A stretch of 64,000 nt of DNA from Lophium mytilinum (Eukaryota), in contig MU004203.1 of the NCBI GenBank assembly GCA_010093605.1, positions 86,156 through 150,155 of the forward strand. The letters run 5' to 3'. The position numbers were made by a program, and so were the translations under genes. The notes under the pieces were generated by a model. That model saw only the letters and a list, made by a program, of their open reading frames with translations, was not told the DNA's origin and made no database searches. Positions 20,451 through 61,665 of this stretch are shown here, in pieces. Positions within the stretch are counted from its first letter, which is position 1; every line of letters begins with the position of its first letter.

Positions 20451-20858
20451 ATGGACAGTCCGAAGAAGCCCCACTAAACCACCTCGCTCAATTTCGACGA
20501 TCCCTTTGACTCACATTCGAGACGCCACAGCCGACTGCTGATTGCATCTCTAGTGCCCTCTGGGACTGTGAGGTCCCGCACGGTGAAGACCGAGCCGCCT
20601 GTGCCTAGAGCTCCCTCGGGATACCTCAAGGCGCCGAAAAGGGAGAACGACATCGATCAGATTTCATCCGGCCTTCAGCGCGTCAGGTTGAGAATGCCTA
20701 CAAAGAAGCAGCACGATGCAAAGAGAAGCAAGAGAAGAGTGAGAGATCGAAGGCCAGAAATGAGGCACCGGGAATCATGGACAGTCCGAAAAAGCGCCAC
20801 TGGATCACCTCGCTCATTTTCATCGATCCCTTCAACTCATATTCAAGACGCTACAGCC
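20451..20858 (+). repeat. 82-bp direct repeats (20451-20532, 20777-20858) flanking a coding-like insert
   Basis: atggacagtccgaa..cacctcgctca..cgatccctt..agacgc.acagcc occurs twice, 326 bp apart. Confidence 0.75.
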
Positions 20859-22203
20859 CGTTCGGAAACCGCTGGTGCCGCTCGTGATATTTCCTTCTAG
20901 ATCAAGACCACGTCCGCTAGCAAAAGAACGGACAACTAGGCAGAAGAACTGCTTGGATATAGTGAACGATGCACCGAGCATAATGTTGGTCCTGTTACAA
21001 GCGGACCAGCGCTCTTCGCCAAAGTGAGAGAGAACGGGTACTCTAGTGAGAAGGAATCGTCGCGTTTCCGCCCGGCGGAGGCAAGTGTTAGATGGTCCAT
21101 TGATCACTGACGCGAGTTCACCCATCCCTATTGGTCATTCCGGAGAGAATATAGAAGGCCATTTGCTCACGGGCGAACTCCAATACTTGAGAGTGGAGAG
21201 CGGGCCTTAGATTGACACCTCTATTTCAAGGGTTGTGGGTATTGGAATGGGACTGTGTTGGACCAGATGAGGCCTGTAGTTGTTGCCAATTGCTAGAACG
21301 TTTTACCTACGAATAGAAAGTTTCTGAGGTTCATTGCCGTTCGTGTCGGAGTTACACCAACCCAGGGCCTTTGTTAATGTAACTACGGAAGTACAAGTAG
21401 AACCCGAGACAAGCGGGAGCAACTGTTCTGTAGTTTTCTTTTTGGCGGGACCTGTTCGGACCTTCAGTCTTCAAATAACAAGTCTGCAACTCTTCCATTC
21501 CGCAGAATTTTTCAGGATGGAAATCTTGTGATGTACGGTACTCCGTTGTCTTGAAGAGCCATGGAGCCAGGGTGCACTTGAGTTCGAGGAGCATCTCGTT
21601 AACGGAATCAATCTTGGGATTCATACAGTCGGACCAATCAAACGCCGCTCATTTTCCCTCGGTCATCGAACACACAAACGCACCGCTCGCTAGTGAATTG
21701 AAAACAGGACTGCGAGCTTCCGCGACTGAGTCCCACGTGAGCCTTGCCTTCGCCAAGTTGCTATCTCAGCACAAGCAGGCCTGTACCCGACCAACAACCC
21801 GTTCGGAAGGCGCCTTCACTTTTCTGATTCCACCAAAACACAAGACACCAACATCATTTCACCGGATGTTCGTGCCTTCTTCACTGATTGCGGTCCCCCA
21901 TCAACTCACCTTAGTACTTCACTAGCCATCGAGGTCGACCGCTCAAACTCAACCTTCGAAACACGACTCATCTGCCAAAGCCCTTGAATCTCCTCTTGAG
22001 ATGAGATGCGAAGTCGAGAGATTTCCTGCAGCAAAGTGATCATCAAGGGCTTCTTCACCAAGGTGAAAGCCGAGCTGCTCCCTAGTGAGGCCTTAGTGCC
22101 ATCTTCCAATCTACTCCCACGACAGCAATTCTTCGAAAAACCCCCAAGGATAGACAGTCCGTCTCTGCCTGTCACCGGACACAGTAACCATAGAGAGTGG
22201 TCG

Positions 22204-22368
22204 GACGACGTGGTTTTCGTCGCTATGTACATCAAGCACGCATCCTGGGCTACCGGGAAAGCGCAGAATGCAGTCATCGAAGTTGGAATATCAACGCTGG
22301 ACATGCGCCACATCCGCGAAATCCACCCGAGCGTCTCCGGAGTTGCTTGGATCAGGAATATACGGACA
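22204..22368 (+). pseudogene. QIP/Gfd2(YDR514C)-like DEDDh exonuclease fragment with catalytic DxE lost
   Basis: DDVVFVAMYIK..VIEVGISTLDMRHIREIHP..G.AWIRNIR resembles the family motif DVVFVCxDxE..ITEIGIATLDTRD..P...G..W...I. Confidence 0.65.
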
Positions 22369-25300
22369 ACGCTCGACCTTTTTCTTCTTGGTTGCACTCT
22401 GGCTGCCCATCACCGCCAAATCCATCCACGTGAGGCAGTACCGCCGCACCGCCACCCCAAACCGTCTGCCGATTTCTTCGACACCACAAACCCGGAGGGT
22501 GAGTGACCACGTCACGCGGAGATTGGTGCGGCAGTCAACAAGTCGTGCAAACTGCAGGTGGCCATACCTGCAGCTTGTTACCCGGAACTCCTCTGTTGCG
22601 AGACGATGACGAGCAAGTTCTTTCCATTAGTCACTGCTTGAACCGCGAAAGACAACAACCCGTACGCTGCCACCAAAATCCGACAAGACCTGCGAGATGC
22701 TCAATAATATTACACTTCGACCTGCGACGCCTATGTTCGACTCGGGGAATCGTGTGTCTACGCCGACGACTACAACTCGAGCCGCGAAGTGAGGGAGGAA
22801 CCCTAGTTTGAGCCCACCGCGCAGGCAGCCATCGAGGCGAAGCATGAGGCAGATCTGAACGCCATGCTCAACTGCAAGCCTGACCCTGAAGAAAAAAAAC
22901 CTGTACATGACGACTATAGTCTGACAAGACCTGCGAGATGTTTAATATCATTACACTTCAACAACGGTAGACGAGACGACGACCAAGCACAAGTTGTTCT
23001 TGACGAGTCCGAGGAAGCTCCTAGGATTCTTCAAGGTAGCTTCAGACCGAGCACGGCCGAAGCACTGCCCGCCAATACTCCTCTGAAAGCATTAAGGCAT
23101 CTCGCATCCCCTCCTACGAATGAGAGGCTCTGTTCTAAGACGCTGGGGCAAGCAACGCCAAATCTTTTCTTCAAGAGACGTTCGATCAAGTCACAGTCCG
23201 AGAAAGACATGACAGAGTTATTCAAACCCCTTCCGATGAGATCGCGTTATCCCTTCCCGTCGCAGGACATGGCATCAAGATCGGGTTTGATCTCACCGGC
23301 GGCAATGGAAAGACCATCATGAAGCAGATAACCGATAAGGAGGAGGGCGACAGTATTCATATATTCTTGTCAACGGTCTGGGTCAAGAGCAAGTCAGTTG
23401 GTTCGTCGACTATCCCGCCGTGGAAGGTATCACCTTCCCAGCAGTGAGCACGTCGAGGCAGCCTTGATGCAAACTTTACGACACGACATCACGACAGCAC
23501 AGGGTACGGGTGACTGCCACGGAGTTTGGGACATTGATTTTGTGCGATAGGCACAGCGATATGCGGTGCACTTAGGAGACAGGGAAGTTTTGAGCACGGC
23601 CTGGGACTAATCAACGTGGCTTTTGTTGTCGTGTTCTCCAGATAAATTCTTTGTCTATCTAGAACTTTCAGTCCAATCTTGCGCAAGATGCCATCTCATG
23701 CTAGATACCCAATCATTTTTCCCTTTTGCGTAAACTGCTAAGCCACTATAACACCTGTGATGGGTGGCTGGCCGTAGAGAGTTTCCCGACTCCCAACCCA
23801 ACGGTGAGGCTGTTCAACCACACTCCATCACCTATCCTACACCCTAAGCCCGCTCTAAGCTCAAGTGAGTTGCGGCTTCTCTCCCGATAGCGATCAGGTG
23901 AAGCGGATGAGTGAGCTGAAGTGAAGCTCAACATGCGCAGCTCACCGAGGTGAGCGTTAGGACGCTCTGCCGCTCTGGCGTCTTGTCTATAGGCTCTTAT
24001 CCTGGATATTCCAGATTCTTGCAAGTACTATTAGCATGTCGACTTCTACCTCCCGCCCTGACCCAAGTAGGAGATACTTTGACCAGATGCTCGATACGGC
24101 ATATCATCCGGACACTTCCGCTATGTTCACCATAAATGATCATTCATCAAGCTTGAGGTCTAAGGCGTCCTCCACAGGGGAGGCTCCATTCACTTTGAAA
24201 AGCCATACATACCAAATCACTTCCTCAAGGCATCGATCAGGCCCGATCCTGAGTCTCCCGTCGGTTCCAGTCAAAGGAGGCTCTGGGCCAACCTTCGCGG
24301 CGTGTAGCCCTTCAGCAATCTCAGTTCTGGTCTGCGACAGAGACCTGCATTGTCCGCCTCCTCGGTTCCTTTAAGGGTCGCCTTGTTCTTGCTCCACTGG
24401 ACAAGGCAACCTCGTAAGGTACTCCTGCTGACTTTCTTCTTCCTATAGGTTGCTCATGATGCAAAATTACGCTGGAGGACTTCATAGCATTGTCGAGTAG
24501 GGGCCGGAGTGGTGGAGAGGTCCTTGATCGTTAGAGCGTTTTGAGAGCCGGCTTTCCAAAAGACAAACGGGTCAGAGGGACTCACTGTCTTGAGTCCGAT
24601 GATTACTGCGCTGTCGGTTTTGAAGATCAAGATAGCAAAAGCAAGGAAGCCATAGCTCACGGCATGGTGTACACTTGGAGATTTTGAATTTGACTACCTG
24701 CTCATTCACACTCTCGACAGTCCTTTCTCGCCAGGCATACTGCCAACCCCGATCCTTAGCCCGCTATATGCATGGTCTAGCGAATTGCATCTTTCCTTTC
24801 TTCGCTCGCCTAAGGGTATGGTGCCTTCATGCGATGGGTGCTGTTGCGATGCTTGTATCGTGATTCCATTTCTTCGTCATGGCAAAATCTCCGAGTGCCA
24901 GAACTGGGCACAAAGGACTGCGACGGCAATATGCTTCGCAGTTGTTAGAGCCTGGTTTGTCACTGTATACCTCCTATCTAGATGCCGTACGCACCAAGTT
25001 CATCGGCCTCGCCAGCAGGCAAGTTGCTGCGCGAGTTGGATGGTGAGGCCCGGGCCGATCTGGTGATGCGGGACAGTGAAGTGGCGCGACGGCGCCTAGA
25101 TTGCCGGATCTGAATCTCGTGTTTTTTTCTCGCGCATGGAAAGGTGGGTAGGATATAGGATCGATGTGGAGAAGTGAGGTGGAGGGATCGTTCGTCGCGG
25201 ACTCATTGAATGGAACTTGGGGATAGTGAAGGCGGCTGGATTGTTGCGCAAAACCTGCGGAAAAAGCGCGACTTGGCAATTTAGAGATGGGGGGTAGGAT

Positions 25301-25702
25301 AAGATACTCTGAACTTAGACACTCATGCTGGCTTCACTGCGAGTTGGCATCTGTCCCGACCGTCGTGATATAGCGTTGTGCGTGGCGCCAGAAATCGAGG
25401 GAACGGTGAAGAAGGTGAACAATTCCAACACGAGAGCGTGCTGCAAATGAAAGCAAGCAGAAGCTATGGAACTTTGGAAAAGAATCAAAAACGCAATGTT
25501 GGTGCCGTGAGCGTATGTGGATGAGGTGAAATGAACGTGCGACCTGATTCACGTTAAGGGAGCATCAGTCGAGGAGCCTACACAACTATTGCAGCATAAT
25601 CTACAGGCTGCATACCTTGAAAGGCGTGCCAGAGATGCGTGGCGGGGTGCGCGGCTAGTACAATAGTTCGTGGCGTGGCAGCAAACGCGCCCTGTCAAAG
25701 GG

Positions 25703-25710
25703 TATATATT
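25703..25710 (+). promoter_or_regulatory. TATA box of U6 copy 2
   Basis: TATATATT 29 nt upstream of the U6 start. Confidence 0.7.
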
Positions 25711-25731
25711 TACTATAAAATAAGACCCTCC

Positions 25732-25884
25732 GCCTTCGGGCATTTGGTCAATTTGAAACAACACAGAGAAGGTGTGTACCATTCCTCGTAACACTCAGCT
25801 TCAAAACTAATATCTGTCAGATTAGCATGGCCCCTGCACTAAGGATGACACGCTTTATCAAAGAGTAGCTTCAAATAATTTTTT
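25732..25884 (+). ncRNA. U6: U6 snRNA copy 2 with 49-nt spliceosomal intron (25772..25820)
   Basis: GCCTTCGGGC..ACACAGAGAAG|gtgtgt..actaat..tcag|ATTAGCATGGCCCCTGCACTAAGGATGACACGC..T8; exons nearly identical to copy 1. Confidence 0.94.
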
Positions 25885-25910
25885 TTAGCTTTTTTAATGT
25901 GCTTAGACCA

Positions 25911-25920
25911 GGTTCGAGCC
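25911..25920 (+). promoter_or_regulatory. Pol III B box downstream of U6 copy 2
   Basis: GGTTCGAGCC about 25 nt after the T8 terminator. Confidence 0.72.
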
Positions 25921-26666
25921 GCTTGGCGGCCACCTTTTTCTTTTTGCCTGTAAATAGGCGAAGGATATAGGCACCATTATCAGCCCTGTTATTGCCATTC
26001 GCTCCATCCATCAGCCATAACGGGTATGCAACGCGTGAACCTCGCGCAGTGTAGGCAACGCGTTGGTCAGGGTCTGGCTGGAGGTGTTCGAACTGGGATG
26101 GTTCTCCATTTATCTACTCCAACAAGGTAACAGAAAGAAGGGCTCTCTTTCTATCGAGGCCTGCAAAGTACCCAGCCTACAGTATTAACTCTGTAATTGT
26201 TATATTTTATAGTATAGGTAGCTTCTTAGGAGCCTTCACCTAGCGAGGTCGATGACGACTTGGGGCTCCGCATGAGTCTGTAAGGCATTAAAGGAGACCG
26301 ACCGCGCTCTATTTACTGTGGCTCGCGCTTCGATAAAGTGTTGTAAGTAGAATGGTACGTAATAAGACGGACATTACTATATGCACTTGCTATATTGCAT
26401 GTTGATCATTATTGGAGAGTCCTACCTGCATACTGGGAGTACGGCCCTTAACATCAAGATGTGAGACGCAAGGCTCTAGGGTCTGTACATATGGGTCAAC
26501 ACTTTCTCATGCATTGATTGATCTGTCCTTTGCTTATAAGTTATTGATGATTCAATAGATCTTGTAGTCATTCCTATCTCGCTACGGCCTGGCATGCACA
26601 CAGATCGAACATAGCGTCTACATAAGAATATGAGGTGAGATATCCATACCGTCTCACACAAGCTCT

Positions 26667-29600
26667 CTAAAGCTCGTCCTCCATGCTTTCGCCATTTCCT
26701 TCATTTGCAGCACTCCAATCTGGCATCTCCTCATCCTCGCCTTCGACATGGCCCGTGGAGGTCCACTCCCGGACCACAAAGATGAAGCGCTCTCCTTCTT
26801 GGCGAACAGTGATTATTGGACAATCAAGGGTGGTGTTCTCTTCAGATTGAGTGGGAGAAACGTTATCGGTAGGCGCAGTAGAGGCTTCACCATTCGTAGG
26901 ATCTCCGACGCTGATGCCTGCGTCAGCACTTGTGGACTCGGAGTTGTCGTTAACATCCGTAAGGTCGACAGTATCCGCTTCCCGTTCCACGTTCTGCTCA
27001 CCTCCCCGGCCGTCATTCCTGAAGACCTTCATGAAGCGGATGCACTTGGTTTCGAACCCTCTCCATGTGCGTGTCTTCTCTCCAAACTTCGCTTGGAAGC
27101 GCTTGAACATTGCCACCCAGCCAGGATAGGCCCTAGACGCCGCTTCACCTCCAGGCATATTCTGAACTTCTCTTCGGAACTCCGTCTCAATCCAATCCAG
27201 CTCCTCCGGACTCCAGAGGCGGCGGTCATAGCCGGCAATGCGACTGCCACCGCAACGGCGGATGTATAGGCGTCGCCAGCTATTGATGATGGTGATCCAA
27301 TCTTGGTTGGACCAATCCACCTCGTCTGCGTGCTTGTATCGCCAGATCACCACTTCCTGGGTGATCTTATGCCTCCGGCGGACAACTATATCTCTTGGTT
27401 GGTCACGCTCGTACGCAGGGCCGTCGGCATCTAGTATCTCCCAGTTCGCCTTGTCCTCGTCTGAAAGTCTCTCATCTTCATCACCCTCATTGGCGAGGAT
27501 TGACAGTGTCGAGACACCTCCGGCGCCAACCGAGCCTTCGTCAAGTGCGTTGGAGGAGACCTGTGCACTACCGGAAGGGCCCGCTTGGGCGGTTTCAGTG
27601 TCCAGTCTAGCCTTTTTGCGGGCCGGCGCCTGAGTATTTCGAGCTGCCCGAGGCCTAAGCACTCTTCCAGTATGTCCTCTATCTTCTGTGCCACCTTGGG
27701 TCACGTCAGATTCGTGACAACCCTCGTTGTTGGGGCCATTGTTTTCAGCTGGCATTCGCTCTTCATCATTCTCGTCGAGGGACAGACCCCTCTTCCGCTT
27801 TCCAAGATTTGTCCTGCTTTCAATCGGCGCGGACGTAGTGGTTGCGTTTTCTGTAAGCCTAGTCGAAGGAGGCTGCAGGTTAGGGTTGGCGATACCAGTA
27901 CTTGTCCCTTGATCAGCTATGTCCATTCGTTCGCCAGCGGCTTCACTTCCTCCTCTGGAAACAACTTCGGCCCCACGAGAAGAACCTCCAGTATTGTTAT
28001 TCGATTGGCTGCTGGTGAGTGACTCGATATGGTGTTCACGAACGGGCATTGAAGAGGTGATGTTATCCAAGTTAGGAACACTCCTGTTGAGTGGGGCTGT
28101 GGGCAAGGTACTCGGCAGTTCCTCAAACGGGTAGAGATGCTTAAACATATCACGAAACCGATCTGCGTAGGCTTTGCCATTTGGCCGGGCCTGAGCTAAG
28201 GCGATCCTGTCCAGAGTCGTGGCGTCCTCAGTGATAAGTGTAGCTTGCGTCTCCTGAATGCGCTCATCTTCCTTAGACAGCACATAATGAATGCTCCTCT
28301 GAAGGTCGGCCGGATTGAAGCCACCTAGGAATGGTATAGGATACACGGCATCGTATAGACTGAGGGCCGCTTGGTTCAGAGACCCGGTGAAATGTTTCAA
28401 GACGGCGGGCATCCTGTCATCCACAAAGCGAGGTCCGGGTCCCCTTTGGTATTCTGTCTCAGTGACCGGAGATTTCCTATTGTGTGATTCTGGAGCCTGT
28501 ATGAACGCTGAGGGTATCTTCTCTTCAGCAGATCGACGGCCACTTCGACGCTGAAATTGGGGAGGCACAGCCATTGGCAATGGCTGGTCGTAGTCTACCC
28601 GCTCCTTGTGAGACTTGACACTCTCCTCAACAATTTTGACCTGTGCAAGCATACGAGCCTCGTCTGCGGCTTTTTGGGTGGTGAATCGACGAGTATTTCT
28701 CGCAATCGCTGCGTTGTCCTGATTTCTAGTCCTCTGAGCCTCTTCATGCTGCCGAGCAAATGTGCTCTCGATACGGTCAAGGTGATCTTGACGCTCCTGG
28801 ATCCAGTCCTGTTTCAAGTCCTGGATTCTTTTCTTGAGGCCCTCTAGCTTATTCTGCATACCCTCAAGCACGATCGGTATCATCAAAACAGGTTGTCGTT
28901 GGATTTCGATCATGAGTTCGTCCCCTGGGTCTTTGCCGTACACGTCGCGGAATACCATTCTAGGCAAAGCCTCGCTGGTCCCCGTGAAGTCTGCGGGAAT
29001 AATCATGAAGCGTCGCTTCTCAGGGGCGGTCTGGTTAATCTGATCATTCACACGCCGGAGAAGTGGTATCATCTTCTCACAGCGGTGCATCGTGATCCAC
29101 ACAAATTCTTCCTCGTCTTGGACCGGATCTCCATCTCTGTGTACTCGGAAGTCTGGATCCGCAACATCTGGCTTGAGCAAATGCGCAGTCTTCTTGAGAT
29201 CCTCGGCCGCACGTCCGTTCCGCACTGCCTCTGTGTGGTTGTACTCGGTTCCAAGCTCACGTAGCTCGTTTGGAGAAATGGCCATCTGCCCGGGCAGCTT
29301 GAGGGCGTCGTGAAAGGACACCGCACGATATTTACCGCTATATACGACAAGGTCCGGCGTTGGATTCTCGTAATACTGACAAGCAAAATGGCATCGCTTG
29401 ACAGTTCGACCGTAGCCCTTGGCAAACTGCTTGTTCTTCCCGTACAGATATCTACATTTCTTACACGGCTTGTACGCTACGGTGAGCGGGCAGTACTTCC
29501 ATGTACCAACAAGCTGGCCGTCGGCATCGGCCATGACGCCGTCTCCTAGACCACCAGGCTGAAGACGGCCGTCATTAACGATGTTTATCTTGGTTTTGTT

Positions 29601-30776
29601 GTCGTTCGACGAACTCGAAGGTTCGCTCGGCATGGGGAGGCCTTCACCGGACTCTGTTATAGGGTCCGTTACTTGGAAGTGCTCCTGCTCGATGAAGGTA
29701 ACGTTCTCCAGGTAGCGTCCAACAGTCCAATCCTTCTCAAAAAGCTTCCCGATCGCTTCCGCCCCTTCAAGCTCTTTCCCAGTCTGTATGGCGTGTCGCA
29801 GAGCGACCGAATACTCGTCAGGGTGAATTGGTAGATCATTAGGCTCTGGCCCATCCGGTGCGGCGACAGTCAGTTGTGGCCAGTTCTGATTTGGCTTGGG
29901 AAGAAAGACTACATCTTCTGCTGTTCCGAGGACACTACGAAGCTGGTGAATGTTAGATGGAACTATGGGAGAGCCACGGAAAGGGCAAACACTTACATCA
30001 GTCGCGTAGGCTATCGCGAGACGAGTCGTCGCAGCATCCTGGGCGCCCTGGACATGGACGTCGTTCCCCACGGCCTCTTTCTGTAAAGCATGCCGGATAT
30101 CTAGTGGTAGTTCGGTTGGCACACTCGCCGCGTCCGCCGCCCATCGCGCCATTCTCCTCTCATCGCGACCTTCCGCGGTATTGGGGTCTGCCATCTCGTC
30201 ATCTTTCCTGGCCTTAGCGGTGGGCTTCCGTTCGCGTCGTGGGCGTAGGTCTGCTTGAACAGCGTCTGCATTGTCCTTCTGATCTGTTCCTTTTTGGTCC
30301 TCCTTCAAGTTCTTTGATTTTGACTTCTTTAGCGCAGCTACATCACCCTTAGTCGTGGTTGCGGCCTTTTCTGGGGACTTGGTGGTGAGTGTCCTGGCGA
30401 TCCTTCTACCGCGCGCAACAGTTTCGATAGCGACGACAGCAGCATCCTCCATGAGGTGATCTTCTCCCACATGGGTGGTAGCAATTTGGTTTTGCGCGAG
30501 AGTGCTAGGTTGCGCGACTCCAGTCGTATGGGTACCAGCGCTTTGGACAGCGCGCGTCGGGTTCTAATTGCGGAGGTCAGCTTCATCTTTGCCATCGCTG
30601 GAAGGGTATTGTGTACTCACCGGAAGCTGGATGGGTCCCGTGTTGCCAACCTTGGCCCTTTTGCTGCCCTTCGCCTTCGGTAATGCTGTCGCATTGTTCT
30701 GCAACATCGGAGGATTGGCTGGCGCATCTTCCTGCGCCTTTCGCTTGCGCAGGCGCGCACCTGTAGTCTCTTCCAT
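26667..30776 (-). CDS. Family member 2 (about 1332 aa; introns 30620..30564 and 29996..29943)
   Basis: MEETTGARLRKRK exon splices in frame (GTGAGT..CTGAC..TAG) to the 1267-aa ORF; second in-frame GTAAGT..CTAAC..CAG intron after ATD. Motifs DWTVGRYLE, GDGVMADADGQLVGTWK, CKKC..CHFAC, QPVLMIPIVLEGMQNK, DWSN..NSWRR..WSPEE..W..RTWRGF. Confidence 0.87.
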
Positions 30777-32532: not shown

Positions 32533-33276
32533 CTACTCTGACTGATCGTCGTCGGCATTTTGAGCGTCTTCTTCTGCCTCGGAGGTTGGGAGAGAGGACA
32601 GAGAACTGCTCGTCGTGCTCTGGGTGTGGCTGGGGGGCTCGAAGCCGAACATTCTTCTCAGGTTGTTAGCCCTAATGCGGTCCTCTTCGTGGACGTGTCT
32701 CAACACAGCTTGGGCGGTCGGATCGTTCTCCCAAGTTAAGGCATGGGTAGCGTTGGATTCATTGGCGCGAGGCTTCAGCTTGCGTGCGTTCCGGGCCTGT
32801 CTGGCCTGCTCTTCGATGTATGTTGGACCAAAGCCCTCGAGAATGTCTGTGCGGATGGAGAAGCCGTAGGGGTTCTGAAGGGCATTGTGAAGGGCGACCT
32901 CTCGGGGCTGGTACTGGATGGAGTCCGCGCGTCCCTTTTCTTTCAGTTCTGGGCCAACAAGATGCTCTTTGCGCCAGCATCCAATGATCTCTCCTGTCAA
33001 GTCTGCAATCACGCCGTGTCCGAAGTTCCGCTGATCGAGACCGCCGGTGTTGTATATCGTCAAGCATGTAGTTGCTGTTGCTTGGGTTGAGAGGGGAGTA
33101 GGCCCCTGGGCGGGAATGATGGCGATTTGATCAAGAGGGATAAATGTGGCACCCTCAAGCTTCGTAGCATCTTCTTGATGGACGGCTACATCTTGACACC
33201 AGTTTGTTCCCACAGCCTGAGGTGCCGATATGACTGCAGATGGCCCAATCCCCGTAGTTTTCGATGTTAAGTCCAT
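32533..33276 (-). CDS. Short family member (about 247 aa) with only the N-terminal novel domain, Cys cluster absent
   Basis: LEGATFI..NTGGLDQRNFGHGVIADLTGEIIGCWRK..REVALHNALQNPYG..FGPTY aligns with members 1-3. Confidence 0.7.
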   Translation of the reverse strand: MDLTSKTTGIGPSAVISAPQAVGTNWCQDVAVHQEDATKLEGATFIPLDQIAIIPAQGPTPLSTQATATTCLTIYNTGGLDQRNFGHGVIADLTGEIIGCWRKEHLVGPELKEKGRADSIQYQPREVALHNALQNPYGFSIRTDILEGFGPTYIEEQARQARNARKLKPRANESNATHALTWENDPTAQAVLRHVHEEDRIRANNLRRMFGFEPPSHTQSTTSSSLSSLPTSEAEEDAQNADDDQSE

Positions 33277-52400: not shown

Positions 52401-55191
52401 TCCGCCAACCGTGGACGACAGCCGCGTAGAATCTCGCCGGCAGTATGAGACATCCTCAGTCCGCTTCGACATGCCCACATTCGGACCTCCGAGCTTTGAC
52501 GACCCCATTCGTTCCGCTTCCGTTCCTTCTGATAAGGACATCGGCTTGTGGGCTAGAACAGACATGCCGATCACCCAAGAGATGGTAAAAGGCCTCCAAA
52601 AGCGTGCGCAAGCTGCCTCAGATGTCGCTAAGGCGCTGAATGCTCTGGATACTCCTCCTCCCCAGCCCGTGCAGCGAGAGACTAACGCGGAGAGAGTTGC
52701 CCGTCTGAAGCGAGAATATGAGGCGCGCCAGGCGGACATCAAGAAGTTCGAGGCTAATGCTCAGGTTTCCGACCTTCGCGGAACCGAGCCAGAGAGCGAC
52801 GCGCAAACACCAAACATCGACCTCATCAAGACGACGGCCTCTTCATCAAAAGAGACCCCGCAAGAGTTGAAGGCCCGTCTGAAGCGCGAATATGAAGCGC
52901 GCCAGGCTGAGATCAAGAGCTACGAGGCGAATCCTACACAGTCCGACGTCCGTGGTGATGCTTCCACTGCCTCTGGAGCTCCCAACGTGCACATCACTGG
53001 AACCGGAACCTCCAACGCCATTGTCATCAACGAGGATGATACCCTAAACACTCCCACCGTCACCGGCGAAGACCCAAACACCCCCACCATCACGACCTTC
53101 CCCCGTTCGAAACCAGAGTGGCGAGAGGCCAAGACTGGAGCCAAAACTCGCTCCGGCAAGACGTTGGGCAGCCGAGTCCGAGAGAGCATCGAATACCTTC
53201 CAGACATGCTCAAGAGGCACCATGAACGAGATCACAGCCTCGACACCGCGATCGTCGATTCCACAGACGCTTCCACAGATTCCAGAGACGCTTCTACAGA
53301 TGCTAGAGACGCTTCTACAGATTCCCGAATGCCCGATAACTCGGAGAAGACTCGCTTGGTTACTGTGCCTGTACCAGCGATTGATGCTACCCCGCTCGCC
53401 ACGTCTGCTGAGCAAGGAAATGGCGGTGAGACTCCAGAGGATGTTGTTCAGCAGGCCTTCCCCGAATTGGATGTGGCCATGAGCGATACCCCAGAATTCG
53501 CTGCCATCGATGCGCCGACGCCGACTTCATTAGATCTTGTGAAGGCTATGGATACGCAACTCGAGAAGGCTCCAGCAGTTTCGAAGGCTATAGAGACGGC
53601 ACTCAAGAAGCTCCCAGCGGCTGCCATCGAGAAACCAAAGGCCCTTCCAAAGATGAGCAATGGAGGCGCCATGGCAATGCCATCCGGTTTGGTGATGTTC
53701 CGTCGTTCCACTCCTGCTCTACTTAGCGGAGATGGCTCACTCCAGACTGATGAGTCCGAGAATGTCGAGATGGGAGGTACCGAAGATGCCCTGCCCACCA
53801 AAGCGAAAGGAAAAGCGAAGGGAAAGGAGCCAGCACATTTCGCACCCGTCAGCGCCACCGCCTCATCAAGCAAGATCGAGACCGGCGAGTCCAGCAAGGC
53901 CGGTGCAAGCGGCGCATCCCACAAGCCAGTTGAGACCAACCCAGCGAACATGACCGAAGCCGAGAGAGTTCTCCATGCGTTGAATGAGGGCGCGCTGCAG
54001 AAAGCGATCCAGGACAGCATGAAGGCATCCCATCCGGCCGCGACGACGCTCCAGATTGCAGGCTGGACTCCCGTAAATCCCCCAACTCCTGGCGCTGCCG
54101 GAGTGGAGCAGGATGAAATGGAAGACTACCTGTACGGCGCAGAGAACCTGGAAGAGGATGGCGAGATTTATGTGCCGGACTCAGATCCCGAAGACGACGA
54201 CGACGAGATGAAGGACGACGACGACGAACTAGACTCCCACCACTCCGACTCCGATTTCGACAGCGACAACGACTCCGGTCCCCCCAAGGGCGGCGCCGCG
54301 CTGAACAAAGGCAAGGGAAAAGCTCCAGCCCCAGCCCCCGCGAAACCCAAGCCCACCTACACAGGCAAAGGCAAAGGCAAAGCCGAAGACCCCCCGTCCG
54401 ACGACGACGACGACCTGGACGACCCCGCCCCCGGCAAGAAGCCCAAAGGCCCCTACAAGTTCCTCGCCATCGACCCGCACGAGTACGACGAGCAGGGCGT
54501 GCGCCGCACCAACCCCGACGGCAGCGCCATCCCCTACTTCCGCTTCACGCCCAACGTCGACGACACCGCGCGCCTGACGATCCGCAAGAAGCACCGCAAG
54601 ACGCTGCGGGAGGAGCCGCCGTACGTGTACAAGCACCTCGCGACCATGGACTTCGCGAACAACCAGCACGTCGTGGACGCGAACAAATGGCGGCGCCAGA
54701 TAATGCGGCGCTCGTACCCGGAAGATCGCGTATATGAAATACGCGACGGGTACGAGGCCGAAGAGCGGGAGTTCATGCGGCAGTACGTCCGCGCAGACAT
54801 CGCGGCGCGTGGCGCGGAGACGGTGCGGCGGCGGCCGTTGTGGGAGAACTTGTTCCAAGCGTTCTGCCGCCACTACGTCGGTAATACGCGTAGCAAGCCG
54901 GGGTTGACGTCGTGGTGTGGCCGTGACCAGCAGATCGCGGACATGAAGGGCCTGCCGGTCAAGAAGGCCGGTGTTTCGGCCAAGCAGGCTAAGCTGAACC
55001 TGCTTGCGGCGGTTAAGGCGGAGGGGGAGGGACAGGACGCCGAGGCCCCTCCGCCGCCGCCGAAGCAGGGGATGAAGAGGAAGAAGGAGGAGGATGAGGA
55101 GGATAAGGACGACGACGACGACGACTCTTTCCATCCGGGGAAGAAGGGGAAGAAGGCGAGGAAGGGGAAGAAGCGGGCGAAGAAGGAGTAG
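49486..55191 (+). CDS. Family member 3 (about 1862 aa after likely in-frame introns 49609-49665 and 50818-50877)
   Basis: 1901-codon ORF. GDGIVVDKNGMIVGTYK, CDSC..CTYHC, DEERISLQIKEEACRSMIERL..GGQSE..VAVPLVLAKLKE, DFANN..NKWRRQ..YEAEE..W..F..RSKPGL; acidic and basic low-complexity tail. Confidence 0.9.
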   Translation: MAPRKRKQAEVEDEIEKPGETTQTGRRTKKAKTRDERATAEVRKGRHSVNISGQANNSQQADPTKTGPVAAGGVTKSSLIVKLPAKTSSTRPLPPQALPIVISDEEEDVDMLGTQPPPPPPQQRVTRARARAASETPDIMAPEAPTIMASQAPAIVAPPAPPVVEPVTSIRPPPARPIISPMGPPEPAPTRVLRDRKAKQPPKTLPQSATPDVDQHFVAVVATIDAATQSSGDDERAIPPDAALTGKSLGGKAKVASKPSPQSTTHGVEPDWAARLAANRAKLQASGEAGLIIAPGAPAQSSLAAARGAQSTKFPSLAKVAAESALSEASSAPTPTQRAPRITRAANKRAIMDPKVRAAEAEQQKALRQRNTQRLGRVETHLKNLAGSGVMDPAELPEGPRGRARKTKRPPKDLPKETVQALAKTQPAGKAEKVREDAVAAATDVSISVFSPLYHVDHSANKTQMAGVRAVGVTPTARVAFLPIPTADDPVLFGPTKDGPQPLPASKDPLNWTAARRRAEKIGEESLDRKLRLGLRAEIGLASYTTVHSIAHLLDSVIFIKHENLVGIHLGTKATASQRGDDSHIPVGDEGRLDTAALGDGIVVDKNGMIVGTYKDIQLWNEKYKPSCDSCTAKGKEVCTYHCPGFYAEPLLKYPTTPSRLVALHNNLVAYGIDNRIHPYGLEKLGETYDHEETLRIAREPMTEWVENRKKMTAGERKIADENDYSSYGYFGAPNWADEERISLQIKEEACRSMIERLRNMQRQIDLLPPDQRPNFVPPPNFGEDLSGGQSEHTPKLALRNACGRESGNKMYSELLARASVAVPLVLAKLKEYWEFLKEYDLKYVEARLRADRDYRAMQAYWALHETESAYSVRTKARNLRAADLEEARNEAAARTPEEQVEWDEDNRRRELLEARVQAENRGFSVEEMARGSRIDEEAFNKKDVEQWEISAAHCATKLRLEGMENRNGAFAPPTVDDSRVESRRQYETSSVRFDMPTFGPPSFDDPIRSASVPSDKDIGLWARTDMPITQEMVKGLQKRAQAASDVAKALNALDTPPPQPVQRETNAERVARLKREYEARQADIKKFEANAQVSDLRGTEPESDAQTPNIDLIKTTASSSKETPQELKARLKREYEARQAEIKSYEANPTQSDVRGDASTASGAPNVHITGTGTSNAIVINEDDTLNTPTVTGEDPNTPTITTFPRSKPEWREAKTGAKTRSGKTLGSRVRESIEYLPDMLKRHHERDHSLDTAIVDSTDASTDSRDASTDARDASTDSRMPDNSEKTRLVTVPVPAIDATPLATSAEQGNGGETPEDVVQQAFPELDVAMSDTPEFAAIDAPTPTSLDLVKAMDTQLEKAPAVSKAIETALKKLPAAAIEKPKALPKMSNGGAMAMPSGLVMFRRSTPALLSGDGSLQTDESENVEMGGTEDALPTKAKGKAKGKEPAHFAPVSATASSSKIETGESSKAGASGASHKPVETNPANMTEAERVLHALNEGALQKAIQDSMKASHPAATTLQIAGWTPVNPPTPGAAGVEQDEMEDYLYGAENLEEDGEIYVPDSDPEDDDDEMKDDDDELDSHHSDSDFDSDNDSGPPKGGAALNKGKGKAPAPAPAKPKPTYTGKGKGKAEDPPSDDDDDLDDPAPGKKPKGPYKFLAIDPHEYDEQGVRRTNPDGSAIPYFRFTPNVDDTARLTIRKKHRKTLREEPPYVYKHLATMDFANNQHVVDANKWRRQIMRRSYPEDRVYEIRDGYEAEEREFMRQYVRADIAARGAETVRRRPLWENLFQAFCRHYVGNTRSKPGLTSWCGRDQQIADMKGLPVKKAGVSAKQAKLNLLAAVKAEGEGQDAEAPPPPPKQGMKRKKEEDEEDKDDDDDDSFHPGKKGKKARKGKKRAKKE

Positions 55192-55274
55192 GCCCCAGGC
55201 GGGGGGGCGGGTGGTGTAAGGCGAGTTTGAGGTAGTACAGAAATGAAACGTTAATATGATTATCACATACCTCA

Positions 55275-57510
55275 CTATCTGCGCACTGGATGCCGCTGTT
55301 AGGAGTACCCTGTGAAGCTACTAGCTCATCCGTCAAAAGGTAGTCCGGATGACAGCGTATTGACTTTGACATCATTTCTAGGGGTCCAAAACGCAGGAAG
55401 CTGTGTTTCAATCTATCTTAGGCTTCGTTTTGCACACTTGATGCTACCGTACGGAGTATCCTGAAGAGCTAGTAAGTGGTCCGTCAAAAGGTAGTCCGGA
55501 TGACAGTGTATTGACTTTGACATTATATTTAGGAATATGAAAAGCCGGAGGATGTGATTTACTTCTACTTAGGCTTCATTTTGCGCACTTGATGCCACCG
55601 TAAGGAGTATCCTGAAGCGCTAGTAAGTGGTCCGTCAAAAGGTTGTCTAGATTGCAATGTACCGATTCTGACATCGTGTTTAGGGCATGAATGGCCGGAA
55701 GCAGTGATTCACTGTGGCTAAGGGTTCATTTTGCGCATGTGATGCCGCTGTTAGGAGTATCTCGTGGAGCTCGTAGGTGGTCCGTCAAAACGCTGTCCAG
55801 ATTCCGCTGTACTAACTTTAACATCGTATTTAGGATACAGATAGCCGGAAGCTCTGATTTATCCTACGTTAGGCTTCATTCTGCGCACTCGATGCCGCCG
55901 TAAGGAGTTCCCCGTAAGGTTAGTAGGTGATCCGTCAAAAGGCTGTTCAGATTCCAACGTATTGACTTTAACATCCTGTCGGAGGGTCCAAAGGACGGAA
56001 CCTGTAATTAGCCCCGATATAGCCTTTGGTTTGATTATTCAACACCACTGGAAGGAAGACCCTGAGGAGCTAGTAGGTAATCCATCAAAACGCTGTCTAG
56101 ATTGAAACTTACTAACTTTAACATTATATCTTAGGGTCCAAAAGGCTCGCAGCTGCGAATAACCCCGATAAAGGCTTTATTTTGATTGTTCGACGCCACT
56201 AGAAGGAGGACCTTGAATAGCTGGTAAGTGATTCGTCAAAACAATGTTTGGATTGAAGCGTACTAACTTTGACACTGTATCTCGGGGTCTAAATGTCCAC
56301 CAGCTGCGAATAGCCCCGAACAGGCTTCGTTTTGATTGTTCAACACCACTGGAAGGAGGACCCTAAATAGCTCGTAGGCGATTCGTCAAAATGCTATCAA
56401 GATTGCAACGTACTGACCTTGACATCGCGTGTAGGGGTTTATAGGGCTGGAAGCCGCAATTCAACTCGGTTTCGGCTTTGTTTTGATCGCTGAACGCTAC
56501 TGTAGGGGATGGCCGAGCAGATACGCTATGAGTTAGCCAAGAGGGAGTTCAATTTCTATAGCACTAACTTTAACATTCTAACTAGGGGTTTAAAATGCCG
56601 CAAGCCGCATTTTACTCTATCTTATTCGTTGTTTTGATCGCTCGACGTCACTGTATGAGATGGCCTGCCTGCTAAGCTGTAAGTGAGCCAAAAGAAAGTC
56701 TAGTATCGAGGTGCTAACTTTTACGTTATGCCTAGGGGCTTCGAAACGCCGGATGCCGCAATTCACTCCATTTTTAGCGTCGTTTTGGCCGTTCAACGTC
56801 ACTGTATGGGGTGGCCTGCCTGCTAAGCAGTAAATAAGCCAAAATGAAGTCTAGTATTGAGGTATTAACTGTAACGTCCTATCTAGGGGGTTCGAAATGC
56901 TGGAAGCCGCAACTTACCTTGCTTTACGGTTTGTTTTGATCTCTAAACACCACCGTATAGGGTGGCCTGCCGCAATTTACTCTCTATTATAGGCGTCTTT
57001 TTGACCTCTTGACACCACTGTAAGGAGCGGTCTAGCTGCTAAATAGCGAGCGAGGCAAAAGGAAGTCTGATTCCAAGGTATCATCTTTAACATCCTGTCC
57101 GGGAGGTTGGAAACGCCGGATGCCGCAATTCACCACGACTTGGGCATCGTTTTGATCGCTCAACGCCACCGTATAGGGTAGCCTGCCTGCTAAGCTATCC
57201 GTCAGGCAAAGTCATTCCAAATTTCAAGGTGTTGATTTTAACATCCTGTCTGAGGGGCATCAAGACCTTGGAGCAGCGATTCACCCTAAGTTCGGCCTTG
57301 TTTGGACCGCTCAACAACACCGTAGGGGGCAGCCTGTCCGCTAGGCAGTCCATCAGGCAAAGGCACTCCAGATTCCACGGTATTGGTTTTGATATCCTGT
57401 CTGAGGGGTATCAAGAGCCGGGAGCAGCGATTCACCCCAATTTAAGCTTCATTTTGACCGTTCAACACCACTGTAGGGAGTAGCCTGTCTGCTAAGCAGC
57501 AAGTAGGGCT
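55275..57510 (+). repeat. About 150-bp satellite, about 16 progressively diverging units
   Basis: a(t/c)(g/a)cc(a/g)c(t/c)gt..gga..ccgtcaaaa..acttt.acat..aggg..tttga recurs at about 55290, 55441, 55592, 55742, 55892, 56041 ... 57464. Confidence 0.9.
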
Positions 57511-58064
57511 AGACGTAGTCCAATCTGCGCTGCTCGAAACGGAACATCGTCCTTAGATCCTCGGAATTATGTGGGCGGACCCCAAGCAGCGGCGGACTAG
57601 CGTGCCCAAGCGGCAACAGCATCGTACGATCCATCGCTAGAATCCGCGCTATTCGTGAGGTGCTAATCAAAACGCATGAGGAGTGGCTCAAAAAGTTGAG
57701 TAGCTTTGCTAGTCAGATCGAGTCCCGATTGCCCGCCCGAAGCATTCCCAATACGTCGTCCGATACGGATATCACACCTAGGCCCAACGCTACCGCTTTC
57801 AAAGTAAACAGAACCCGAAACCTACCTCCCTCCAATTCTAACGTGGACGATACCGGCAATTCGCTTGTGGACGAGTCGGTCGGCAGTCCGCTTGCAGACC
57901 ATCCGAAGAAGCAGGGGGCCAAAACTGGCAAGCCTCGCAAGAACAAAAACCAGATACCACCTACCACCACGGGGCCGTGGTTACTGCTAACCACTGATAG
58001 ATAAGACTTTAGAGTGTGACATTGACAGCGTTGAAATGCTTCGGGATTGCTTACGCTTTTCCTC

Positions 58065-59625
58065 GCACGATACCACTGTAAGGAAGGCTTTAGTCAGCTC
58101 GCCCTCGACTGGTGAAAAGGTAACCCAATCTCCGTTGCGGCCCTTGTCCCTTTGCTTTTCAAGCTTTTCTCTACTTCACATCACCGTTAGGAAGGCCTCA
58201 GCCAGCAGGTATCCAATCAGCCAAAGGGTAGCCTGATTTCCGCTGCAACTCTTTCCCTTTGCTTCTCACGCTTTTGCTTTCTTCACGCTGCCGTCGAGAA
58301 GGCCGAAGCTAGCACGTATTCGACTACCCAAAAGGTAACTTGATCTTCGCTGCAGCCCCTTCGCTTTGCTTTTCACGCTTTTTCCTGCTTCACACCACCG
58401 TTAGGAAGACCTCAGGTAGCAGGTACCCCAACAGCTAAAAGGAGGTCTAGATTCCGCTACAGCCCCTTTCGCTTTAATTTTTACGCGTTTTCCTGCTTTA
58501 CACTACCTTTTAGAAGAGCCCAGCATGCATGTACTCGGCCGGCTAAAAGGTAGCCTGATTTCCGCTGCAAGGCCTTCAGTTTCACTTCTTATAAGTTTTC
58601 TTCTTTCACACCACCGTTAGGAAGGCCTCAGCTCGCGAGTCCTCGGCCGGCTAAAAGGTGACCCGGTTTCAGCTGCAACTCCTTTAGCTTAGATCCTCAC
58701 GCTCTTACTTCCTTTACACCACCGTCAGGAAGACCTCAGGTAGCATGTTCTCGACTCGCTAAAAGGTAGCTTAGTTTCCGCTGCAACGCCTTTAGCTTTG
58801 CTTTCTGTACAGCATTCTTCGGGGCACGGATATGCCTCCGTAGAGGTGTAGATCTGGTCGCTCGGTACCACCGTTGGGAAGGCCTCAGCGAGCAGATGCT
58901 TGACCAGCTAAAAGAAAGGCTAGTTTCCACTACAGCCCCTTTACTTCACTTTTTACGCTTTTGTTTCTGATATAGCACCGTTAGGAAGGCCTCGGCCAGC
59001 AGGTGCTGACCAGCCAAAAGCTAGCCCGGTTTCCACCGCAACCTCTTTAGCTTTGCCTTCTGTACAGCAATCCTTCGGTACACGGATATATCTCCACAGA
59101 GGGTCTAGTCTTGCGCGCTCCACGCCACCGTGTGGAAGGCCTCAACTAGCACGTCTTCGGCCGGCCAAAAGATATCCAGGTCTCAACTGTAGCCCTTTAG
59201 CTTTGCTGCTCATGAGTTAATCCTCCAAGACGAGGATATAACTCCGCGGCATTTCCAACCTTGCTCGCTTAACGCCGCCGTTAGGAAGACTTCAACCCGC
59301 ACGTGCTCGACCGGCCAAAAGGCACCCCAACTCCAGCGTACCAGCCTTAATGTTGGGTTCCTATGCATAATTTCTTCGGGACACGGATATACCTCCGCAG
59401 AATTTCCTGTCTTGCTCGCTCAACGCCGCCGTTAGGAAGACCTCAACCAGCACGTCCTCGACCGGCCAAACGGCAAGCCAATTCTAGCATACCAGCCTTA
59501 TAGTTGGTTTCCTAAGCAAGAATCCTCCGGGACACGGATATACCACCGTAGAGGTTCTAGCTTTGCTCGCTCAACGCCGCCGTCAGGCAGACCTCAACCA
59601 GATCCCATCGCTACCGGTAAAACAT
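58065..59625 (+). repeat. Related satellite with about 107-bp units switching to about 150-bp units
   Basis: caccgttaggaaggcctca..aaaaggt near 58072, 58182, 58288, 58393, 58501, 58609, 58717, 58867, 58973, 59123, 59273, 59424 and 59575. Confidence 0.9.
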
Positions 59626-59879
59626 CGCTATCATGGCAGCGACATCACCTCAGCAGTCTGTGCTACCAATCACGGATCTTCTCGAACGTCAGCGAGGAAG
59701 ACGCTGTACCCGGCGACGACACTAGCGAGGTCCATACGATGAGAGCTCAGGCCTCTATCGCCATTCCTTTTCGTCTCCGGTCTGCGAAAGTTCGTAGTTC
59801 CCAGTGTGCCATCCTTGCGGTTTGTTTTCTGTGCTTTAAGCTTATAGCACGCATATTTCTCTGTACAGGTTCCACGGCT

Positions 59880-61665
59880 GCTCGTTCAGTAGCACCGTCA
59901 GGCAGGCCTCAACTGGCACCTACCCGACCGGCCAAAAGGAGATCGAATATCAAGAGTGTAGACCCAAGCTTCATCTCCTTATGCCTCAAGTTGACCCCCA
60001 TTGTAGGGCAAAGGTGTTCCTTTCTCTCCGGCTCCCACTATTTCTCGCGCAACACCACCGTTAGACACGCCTCGACTAGCGTGTCCTCAACCGGCCAAAT
60101 GGTATCCTGATATCGAGGGTATAGAGCTAAGCTTCATTCCCTTCTACTTCAGGTCTTAAGACATAGGTATCTCTCCACCTGGCTCTTTCTCTTGCTGCCG
60201 CGCCACCACTACGCGGAGGGCTCTGGCCAACAGGTAGTCTAGCGGCCAAGAGGTATCTTGATATCAAGGGTGTAAACCCAACCTTCATCCCCTTATACCC
60301 CAAGTTGACGTCAAGTTGCAGGGCATAGATAATTCTCTCTCCCAAGCTCCCACAACAAGGCTGAGCGGGAACCCCCTCATCACTCGCGTCCATTCAAAGA
60401 CATCTGCCAGAAACTTCGGAAGCCGGTCATGGAGGATGCTGTAATAGTGAGCGCCACGGCGATCATGTCGGCCAAAGTTCGACGATTCGGGTTCGACGCG
60501 AGCTTGATCGTGTTGGATGAAGCCTCGCAAATTTCGAATGCGGATACGGCTCTCAATATGACCTCTCGAGATGCGGAACGCTTGGTAGTGGCGGGCGATC
60601 CGAACCAACTCTCCCCGACCGTCACCAACATGCATGGCAGCCCTTTGACGTCTTTATTGACGGGGTCCACTCTCGAGCATCTCATCTCCACCTGGCTCTT
60701 ACTCTTGTGCCGCGCCGCCACTGTACGGAGGACCCCAGCTATCAGGCAGCCTATCGGTCAAGAGGTATCCTTATCCGTAATGCGTCAAGCCTAACGTTGG
60801 TTTCCTATGCTTCGGGTTCCAGGGCATGTGTATTACTCTATACTGGCTCCCACTCCAGAGATCTATTTGGACTGGGGTCCTTTAGAGATGGACTAGACGG
60901 AAGCACTCGAAAAAGTTCTGGAGCTCCACATCTTTCCCAGAAAATCCAGTTGGATTCGGAAGACGTGACCAGATCTCGTGGTAAAATGTGCTTATTAAGC
61001 GGCGCTAGCCCGTAGTAGACGTCACGTTATGTCTGGAGCTCCACAGCGTCTTCGGTAGACTGGAGTGGATTTGAGGCAAAATCCACTCCAAATAGATCAC
61101 TGCTTACTCTTGCTGGCACAACATCACCAGAGGGAGGATGCTAGCCAGTAAGTACCCAACCAGGGAAAAGGTAACCCGGTTGCCAGTGTATAGACCTGAG
61201 GCTCATTCCTTACGCGTCGAGGTTGATTGCTCGAGTTCAAGGCATGGATGTTGCTCAACCTCGCTCTTACTCTTGTTGGAGCGACACCACTACACGGACG
61301 ACCCCAGCCAGCAGGTACTCAACCAGACAAAAGGTAACCCAGTTGCCAGTGTATAGACTGGAGGTTCATCTCTTACGCGTCGAGCTTAAAGGCTCGAGTT
61401 TCAAGGCATGGGTATCTCTTTACCTAACTCACACTCTTGCTAACGCAGTGTCACCGTGAAGAGGACTCCAACCAGCAGGTACTCGACCAGCCAAAAGGTA
61501 ACCCAGATGCCAACGTAAAAAACCTGGGGATCCTTACTTACGCGTCGAGTTTGAAAGCTCGAGGTTCAAAGCTGTGTATTACCCTACCCGGCTCCTACTA
61601 TTGCGAGCGCGACACCACTGTACGGAGGACTACAGCCAGCAGTACTCGAGCAGCCGAAAGGTTGA
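59880..61665 (+). repeat. Degenerate about 160-165-bp units of the same satellite, interrupted by foreign inserts
   Basis: caccactgta.ggaggac.ccagc.agcaggtactc...aaaggtaaccc near 59890, 60052, 60200, 60715, 61120, 61283, 61450 and 61612. Confidence 0.75.
60355..60680 (+). pseudogene. UPF1/DNA2/NAM7-like SF1 helicase fragment (motifs Ib-III)
   Basis: DAVIVSATA..LIVLDEASQI..LVVAGDPNQLSPTV....STLEHL; no Walker A motif; bounded by satellite sequence. Confidence 0.82.

Follow-up and report, generated by a model that had tools for sequence, protein, structure and literature searches.

Strand-ordered archives of host gene pieces, repeatedly renewed from a limited gene set, in the fungus Lophium mytilinum

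Features of the window

The DNA stretch analysed in this study (64,000 nucleotides; hereafter, the window) is C23:86156-150155 in the 43.4-Mb assembly of the wood-dwelling fungus Lophium mytilinum, which consists of 49 contigs (C23 is contig MU004203.1). The window is part of a region of C23 (ca. 54-146 kb) that holds short pieces of other genes of the same genome, and the core genes for PRMT, Rav1, Uso1, and an XRN nuclease start again immediately to its right. We call such a region an archive, the gene from which a piece derives its parent, and adjacent pieces of one parent, once joined, a capture. A larger archive is located on C4 (ca. 133-445 kb), where a gene desert of ca. 320 kb (ca. 128-450 kb) contains few open reading frames (ORFs) of more than 300 codons, has a GC content of ca. 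52% except in AT-rich stretches, and is studded with intact U6, U2, and U4 small nuclear RNA (snRNA) genes. The archive units are gene-shaped, non-coding, and 1.5-2.5 kb long. The results described below demonstrated that the archive is strand-ordered and repeatedly renewed from a limited set of genes.

The catalogue of pieces was built by DNA searches of the window against the genome and subsequent alignment to the fetched loci, and the parents were named via Pfam. When Pfam was applied to the 445 stop-to-stop ORFs of the window, only three fragments (QIP family, AAA_11, and permease) and a weak lactonase match were recognised, and the catalogue therefore rests on the DNA searches. The features of the window are as follows (UTR, untranslated region; rRNA, ribosomal RNA; block strands are those of the parents' sense).

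1656-1805, minus strand: intact gene for U6 snRNA that has a TATA box, a T-run terminator, a B box further downstream, and a spliceosomal intron
3815-4459, plus strand: ORF upstream of g1 in the same frame, ending at a stop codon
4460-7984, plus strand: g1, long ORF that carries a Sin3-like segment and belongs to a lineage-specific family
8483-9595, minus strand: block of two PSP1 pieces, unnamed gene L002, a piece common with the C11 patchwork, and Nrp1
9470-9508, plus strand: 39-nt large-subunit rRNA piece within the Nrp1 fragment, in opposite orientation, with a 4-nt duplication or microhomology
10871-11556, plus strand: GSK-3 fragment of five tandem pieces with intron branch point and acceptor; 10 N at 11194-11203
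13831-14122, minus strand: amino-acid permease piece (93%) that includes a splice donor and directly adjoins a piece of L011, an unnamed gene
16075-16182, plus strand: piece of unnamed conserved gene L131 (73%)
17137-17868, plus strand: block of the 5' end and intron of a glycine-rich RRM gene (three copies), L020 (95%), and a non-coding L021 piece
19591-21201, plus strand: block with PSP1 pieces on either side of a HOS3-like tail
20545-20771, plus strand: HOS3-like tail, 88% identical to the C-terminal, non-catalytic part of a histone-deacetylase ORF of 1292 codons
21074-21201, plus strand: end of block 19591-21201, formed by the glycine-rich RRM gene's stop and 3' UTR
22206-23562, plus strand: block of QIP-like, 6PF2K, 6-phosphogluconolactonase, and L002 pieces
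22206-22366, plus strand: QIP-family piece, 93% identical to a DEDDh_C gene on C1
22399-22550, plus strand: 6PF2K (6-phosphofructo-2-kinase) piece
22560-22606 and 23250-23562, plus strand: 6-phosphogluconolactonase pieces, the second with stop and 3' UTR
22649-23140, plus strand: L002 piece
25732-25880, plus strand: intact U6 snRNA gene with an intron and a B box ca. 30 nt downstream
26667-30563, minus strand: g2, 1298-codon ORF of the Sin3-segment family, with an exact match to one 205-nt contig of an RNA run
32533-33345, minus strand: g5, short paralogue of the family's N-terminal domain
35310-35487, plus strand: 3' non-coding piece of a PIR/GPI cell-wall gene (74%)
37288-37356, minus strand: 5' piece of the nucleoporin gene Ndc1 (87%)
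38303-39743, plus strand: block of L015, a Zn2Cys6 factor, Argonaute, L011, the Zn2Cys6 factor again, and the PSP1 5' end (three copies)
38410-38565, plus strand: Argonaute piece, 88% identical at the DNA level to an intact Argonaute gene on C2
40587-41570, plus strand: g4, ORF with the family's C-terminal domain (weak, E about 1e-3)
49483-55191, plus strand: g3, 1902-codon ORF with a Sin3-like segment
59599-59792, plus strand: 5' piece of L016 (88%), an unnamed gene, inserted within a tandem array
60333-60686, plus strand: UPF1/IGHMBP2-superfamily helicase piece inside a tandem array, with no parent in the genome

The ORFs g1 to g5 belong to one lineage-specific family (24-30% identical), and three of them have the Sin3-like segment. 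A cysteine-rich domain (CxxC, CxxxC, H), the Sin3-like segment, and a common C-terminal domain were seen among these paralogues, for which no Pfam match and no relatives were found; a homologue search with g2 returned only g2 itself among 8000 scored candidates. The Sin3-like segment, recognised in the first-pass annotation, was borne out in g3 by 35% identity over 98 amino acids to the real Sin3 of the genome, and its likeness is that of an old domain at the protein level and does not stem from a DNA fragment. Since the C4 archive contains no Sin3-segment gene, these genes are neighbours of the pieces and not a required part.

Degenerate tandem arrays with units of 108, 150, and 160 nt and a common core motif (46530-49140, 55250-61650, and 42216-42285) flank g3, and similar units occur at dozens of sites spread over many contigs. 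A 140-nt dispersed repeat at 20287-20435, which also has copies on many contigs, interrupts a PSP1 piece. AT-rich stretches (11-33% GC, with N runs) at C23:4-44 kb, C23:180-205 kb, and C4:349-392 kb border or split both archives and may represent centromeric DNA or DNA mutated by repeat-induced point mutation (RIP). No transfer RNA gene was found in the window or in 33 loci.

Parent genes, their recurrence, and strand order

When the parents were compared by BLAST with the fetched DNA, C4 and C23 together contained 175 gene pieces (median length, 146 nt) from 40 parents, which correspond to 140 captures after joining adjacent pieces of one parent; nine rRNA pieces and 11 U6 loci were found in the same search. 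The window contributed 27 captures and 19 strand-assigned parents. Matches on C11, matches outside the hand-set transcript spans, repeat families (L010, L024, L026, L120, L136, L137, and L139), and parents without a strand (L021, L022, L127, L129, L130, L133, and L138) were excluded from the counts. The catalogue of parents is a floor, since the DNA fetched for each later-found parent covered only 1.2-3 kb and only four of the ca. 30 10-kb loci of C4 (three of them not pre-selected) were searched genome-wide with a result.

The most frequently captured parents were PSP1 (16 captures, five of them separate captures inside the window), a QIP-like gene (10), a Gbp2-like RRM gene (9), the unnamed L002 (8), and prolyl-tRNA synthetase (7), followed by Pho85 and L011 (6 each) and Argonaute, the HOS3-like gene, and a Rim4-like RRM gene (5 each). 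Sub2, Yra1, Nrp1, GSK-3, 6PF2K, Cwf15, Fba1, and Mot1 were also present, and further window parents besides 6PF2K were 6-phosphogluconolactonase, Ndc1, the Zn2Cys6 factor, the glycine-rich RRM protein, and unnamed genes. While the names Sub2, Pho85, GSK-3, and aldolase come from PDB matches, the labels Rim4-like, Gbp2-like, Btz-like, Yra1, Nrp1, and Mot1, as well as HOS3 for the captured histone-deacetylase gene, are names that we presume from Pfam domains or motifs. RNA-handling genes (including Sub2, Yra1, Gbp2-like, PSP1, and Nrp1), a category set post hoc, accounted for 12 of the 40 parents and 67 of the 140 captures, and such genes make up 5-8% of a genome. No ribosomal-protein, actin, histone, or EF1-alpha gene was among the 40 identified parents.

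The same parents were sampled again and again. Fifteen of the 19 window parents recur on C4, and different segments of the same genes, with identities of 68-100%, were sampled in both archives. By hand count, unbiased genome searches gave 19 parents for the window and 36 for five other 10-kb loci, of which nine were common; without L027, which had been fetched due to a window match, 25 parents remained, three of them shared with the window's 19. Fewer than 0.1 shared parents would be expected by chance if ca. 12,000 genes are assumed, and a mark-recapture estimate by hand suggests a donor pool of ca. 80-160 genes. Among parents first met outside the window, 12 of 22 recur at a second place (1.2-3 kb of each fetched). 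All 26 PSP1 matches outside the PSP1 gene lay in the two archives or in a patchwork on C11. As controls, 170 kb of other DNA yielded repeats, snRNA genes, and one further 75-nt match, and 120 kb containing RNAi (RNA interference) paralogues, Dicers, RNA-dependent RNA polymerases (RdRPs), and Sin3 yielded flank repeats and one 60-nt match near a broken Argonaute, the repeats being judged by eye in both cases.

Two small occurrences were seen elsewhere. The C11 patchwork (L022:2540-3410; C11:1283.5-1284.4 kb) consists of co-oriented PSP1 and Pho85 pieces between P450-cluster genes, and a 42%-GC stretch of C17 (L009:3426-3577 and 7312-7469) holds two co-oriented pieces of the captured Argonaute (93% and 85%).

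Among neighbouring pieces of different parents, the same orientation was seen for 59 of 61 pairs lying within 500 nt of each other and for 75 of 79 lying within 1 kb (17 of 18 pairs in the window). The rRNA pieces, which are short (33-65 nt versus the median of 146 nt for gene pieces), ran opposite to the gene pieces in 9/9 cases in six separate blocks; over six blocks the coin-toss odds of this are 1 in 64, and the rule rests on few events. U6 genes were oriented as the nearest piece at nine of ten archive loci, and the polarity of blocks flips every few to tens of kb. Random double-stranded insertion accounts for neither strand rule, and plain RNA template switching would put rRNA in the same direction as messenger RNA (mRNA). 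Eight U6 loci lie on C4 at 143-427 kb (five intronless and three with an intron) and three on C23, with matches on at least five other contigs. An alignment of six copies showed nearly invariant exons with TATA box, terminator, and B box retained, and three U2 matches and one U4 match were found in or at the archives.

The first-pass annotation had held that the captured fragments are enriched for silencing machinery, an observation that is partly confirmed. The Argonaute fragment and the tail tentatively called HOS3-like proved to be real, and so did the QIP-family exonuclease piece, although its parent is catalytically dead and not the canonical nuclease. The helicase piece does belong to the UPF1-like superfamily (AAA_11, E=3e-10; IGHMBP2-family model, E=2e-7), but no tie to SAD-3/Hrr1 was obtained, and neither a parent genome-wide nor a PDB match was found for it. 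The GSK-3, Nrp1, and permease pieces, which had been set aside as not fitting the theme, are present, but GSK-3 and Nrp1 are regular recurrent parents and not misfits.

The enrichment itself was weak. RNAi-family genes made up two of the 40 parents (also two of the 19 strand-assigned window parents) and 15 of the 140 captures (Argonaute, 5; QIP-like, 10), which is nominally above chance (P about 0.004, calculated by hand for ca. 29 loci with about 12,500 genes assumed and a post hoc category), but the other 38 parents are not RNAi genes. In the Pfam-matched coding stretches, no match was found for four of four RdRP loci or for the two Dicers (4.5 kb of each), and the same applied to eight of nine other Piwi loci (one 60-nt match lay near a broken Argonaute paralogue) and to eight of 12 other QIP-family loci. 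Silencing thus forms a minor component of a broader bias towards post-transcriptional and signalling regulators.

The QIP-like parent ranked tenth of 13 family loci by score and reads MYIKY and HNAGNQ, without the catalytic acidic residues (DxE, NAGND); in the aligned QIP paralogues, DxE of the first motif was kept in 4/4, and GND was also kept. This parent (L004:2623-3627), a dead nuclease, carries at its C-terminus a motif resembling a CCHC zinc knuckle and is possibly an RNA-binding adaptor. It lies at C1:2171 kb. The same contig has seven extra Piwi loci (829-943 kb, 2120-2190 kb, and 1-2 kb), several of which contain stops, and one of the seven is 17 kb away from the QIP-like gene. The genome has four RdRP loci, two Dicers, and three Piwi loci with full-length stop-free matches.

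Serial insertion of pieces and loss of coding capacity

Only three of 59 overlapping pairs of pieces were nearer to each other than to the parent. Shared differences numbered 258, against 70 by chance, but 163 of the 221 coding ones were at third positions, which would be expected from drift of the parent. Private changes were spread nearly evenly over codon positions 1, 2, and 3 (293/277/399), 60 of 103 coding pieces were frameshifted, and the first three abutting pieces of block 38303-39743 are in three different reading frames. Junctions showed 0-9 nt of microhomology, and pieces were nested in older pieces (QIP-like in L122, Argonaute in PSP1, and rRNA in Nrp1). None of the 184 aligned pieces lacked at least 25 nt of its parent, and no precise intron loss was seen; whole introns were retained in the 6PF2K and glycine-rich RRM pieces and partial introns elsewhere, so that the donors were DNA or unspliced RNA. 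Matches of at least 230 nt between the archives were limited to the U6 and U2 regions, one PSP1 pair, and one further 454-nt segment, and no long archive-to-archive duplications with shared junctions were found. A perfect run of at least 21 nt against the parent was kept in 100 of 175 pieces, and such runs exceeded shuffles (5057 versus a mean of 3519 and a maximum of 3986), an excess that was not counted as selection since conserved patches of the parents have the same effect. These observations show serial insertion by microhomology of pieces from restricted parents, with a polarity and with loss of coding.

Several other origins were rejected. Assembly chimeras do not fit pieces that have diverged in nearly all cases (68-98%), and RIP-inactivated duplicates do not fit C-to-T rates without a CpA bias (CA 0.087, CC 0.092, CG 0.104, and CT 0.082). 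In-frame chimeric proteins were rejected by the frameshifts and the lack of a purifying-selection pattern, and processed pseudogenes or retro-chimeras by the retained introns. Segmental duplication, a shredded ancestral copy, and archive-internal duplication are at odds with the three of 59 pairs nearer to each other than to the parent, and homology-primed break repair alone does not explain why new pieces enter pieces of other genes.

Possible origin and meaning of the archives

C-rich skew is a mark of fungal start sites. Visual inspection of 12 blocks placed a C-rich stretch on the sense-5' side of 10 of them, the same being true of g1, g3, and g4, and several blocks close, in the direction of sense, with a stop and 3' UTR that had been captured. 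The base skew suggests that the blocks are transcribed in the sense direction of their pieces. When an RNA run was compared with 19500-39450, 14 contigs matched; the eight listed ones included parent transcripts, U6 pieces, and the exact 205-nt g2 piece but no piece-to-piece joint, and the run is uninformative on block expression.

Based on these results, we tentatively favour, as somewhat short of an even chance, a hypothesis in which sense chimeric non-coding units feed RdRP and Dicer, yielding small interfering RNAs (siRNAs) against the parents, with a feedback that resamples the same genes. Short pieces are copied singly from transcription units of a limited host gene set and inserted with 0-9 nt of microhomology, often into older pieces, with one polarity per block; the donors would be unspliced nuclear RNAs or their cDNA. 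The units would be transcribed in the sense of their pieces, and host RdRP and Dicer would turn the chimeric RNAs into siRNAs, whose targets would mostly be RNA-handling and signalling regulators, including one Argonaute and the one dead QIP-like gene. Resampling would follow if silenced transcripts were the RNAs at hand for capture or if new pieces were selected, and the anti-rRNA stretches might, speculatively, be sites at which abundant guide RNAs derived from rRNA land and set off the amplification. A stronger version, which we consider unlikely, is an adaptive small-RNA memory against the fungus's own genes: RNAi-engaged transcripts would be archived in pieces at dedicated loci, with fixed polarity and in a manner resembling CRISPR primed acquisition, abundant guides derived from rRNA would set off RdRP amplification at the short anti-rRNA sites, and the archive would tune mRNA-export, RNA-granule, kinase, and RNAi genes, including its own Argonaute.

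Several points weigh against this hypothesis. The average identity of a piece to its parent is ca. 85%, intron retention fits DNA donors as well as pre-mRNA, and silencing of Sub2, Yra1, and prolyl-tRNA synthetase would be costly unless it were confined to one stage. Polarised substitutions lean towards antisense transcription (T>C 82.5 versus A>G 61.0 per 1000, p=0.012), and C>T versus G>A (p=0.13) is neutral or leans the same way. The 5' skew could reflect captured 5' UTRs instead of working promoters, the strands of unnamed parents were set by visual inspection of long ORFs at a time when the pattern had already been noticed, and both the small RNAs and the archive-specific non-coding transcripts are ones that we infer.

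The main rival, somewhat unlikely in our view, is neutral debris: a reverse transcriptase or repair polymerase would switch templates among RNAs at a common nuclear site (retained pre-mRNAs, snRNA loci, and the nucleolar edge) and write into weakly transcribed spacer, so that polarity and recurrence would mirror the donor pool. Microhomology and nesting, frameshifts and neutral decay, and the fact that matches in the fetched loci hit the target genes and not their neighbours are all in line with it. However, an antisense rRNA donor would be needed for all nine inverted rRNA pieces, ribosomal-protein, actin, histone, and EF1-alpha genes are missing from the 40 identified parents, and the QIP-like parent was captured 10 times despite its low depth (12 in one RNA run).

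The inverted rRNA is most simply explained by a single-strand cluster resembling flamenco, in which long transcripts run antisense to the pieces, antisense pieces are selected, and rRNA is tolerated only in the harmless sense orientation; the strand-biased nested fragments (59/61 pairs) and both polarised transition asymmetries, one of them at p=0.012, also point this way. We nevertheless regard it as quite improbable, since block polarity flips every few to tens of kb and the C-rich leaders and frequent captured stop and 3' UTR endings follow the sense direction.

Gene capture by transposons (Helitron- or Pack-MULE-like) or shredding of one ancestral captured set is very improbable. Multi-gene, co-oriented, intron-bearing chimeras are typical of such elements, but no transposase, reverse transcriptase, or Rep/helicase domain was found in the 445 window ORFs, no terminal inverted repeats were found around the blocks (Helitron 3' hairpins were not searched), and there were no repeated element ends, shared long segments, or junctions, with identities spreading over 68-100%. 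Least probable is the selfish island of the first-pass annotation, which would specifically damp RNAi or meiotic silencing and protect the Sin3-segment genes: Argonaute and QIP-like are recurrent parents (15/140 captures), both families are expanded with several broken Piwi loci, and a small-RNA output is plausible, so that this interpretation is partly supported, but no test showed a selfish or meiotic role, 38/40 parents are other genes, RdRP and Dicer pieces are lacking, and the larger C4 archive has no Sin3-segment gene.

The archives share traits with several known systems. Plant Pack-MULEs and gene-capturing Helitrons carry co-oriented intron-bearing chimeras, with reported siRNAs matching the parents. 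The archive likewise consists of mostly co-oriented, short, intron-bearing pieces of several host genes, but element ends, transposase, and replicated copies were not found; it differs further in the serial insertion into fixed regions, the long-term resampling of parents, and the inverted rRNA. Single-strand clusters of Piwi-interacting RNAs (piRNAs) such as flamenco and pseudogene-derived endo-siRNA or piRNA loci are small-RNA sources in animals; to our knowledge, fungi lack the PIWI clade. Like these clusters, the archive is gene-poor, accrues nested strand-biased fragments over time, and could serve small-RNA memory, whereas it targets host housekeeping and regulatory genes instead of transposons or viruses, its skew points to sense units, and its polarity flips between blocks.

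Template switching by long interspersed nuclear elements (LINEs) produces chimeric retrogenes (U6/L1 in mammals and the Magnaporthe chimeras), which resemble the archive in their head-to-tail fusions of cellular RNAs, single polarity, and short microhomology; unlike them, the archive retains introns, has no LINE partner, inverts rRNA, and contains intact U6 genes with promoter elements. Templated insertions at double-strand breaks are made by polymerase theta, and Ty cDNA and ribosomal DNA (rDNA) are captured at breaks in yeast. The archive is similar in its inserts of 30-700 nt with 0-9 nt of microhomology, rDNA included, but we know of no strand rule or fixed donor set described for such insertions. 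In Cryptococcus, SCANR makes siRNA from stalled pre-mRNAs. A possibly comparable system would supply unspliced RNA of particular genes beside RdRP, Argonaute, and a QIP-like protein; SCANR is not known to include a genomic archive. A thin literature check met no description of such an archive, which does not establish its absence from print.

Whether functional or not, the pattern calls for a process by which specific transcription units are copied to specific sites and in which rRNA follows the reverse of the strand rule that applies to mRNA genes. This would be direct genomic evidence that sequence is written into a fungal genome under the guidance of RNA or from an RNA template. Since pieces carry mismatches to their parents, reads can be assigned to either, and if the units yield siRNAs, the archives would be a fungal counterpart of piRNA clusters, aimed at the organism's own regulators.

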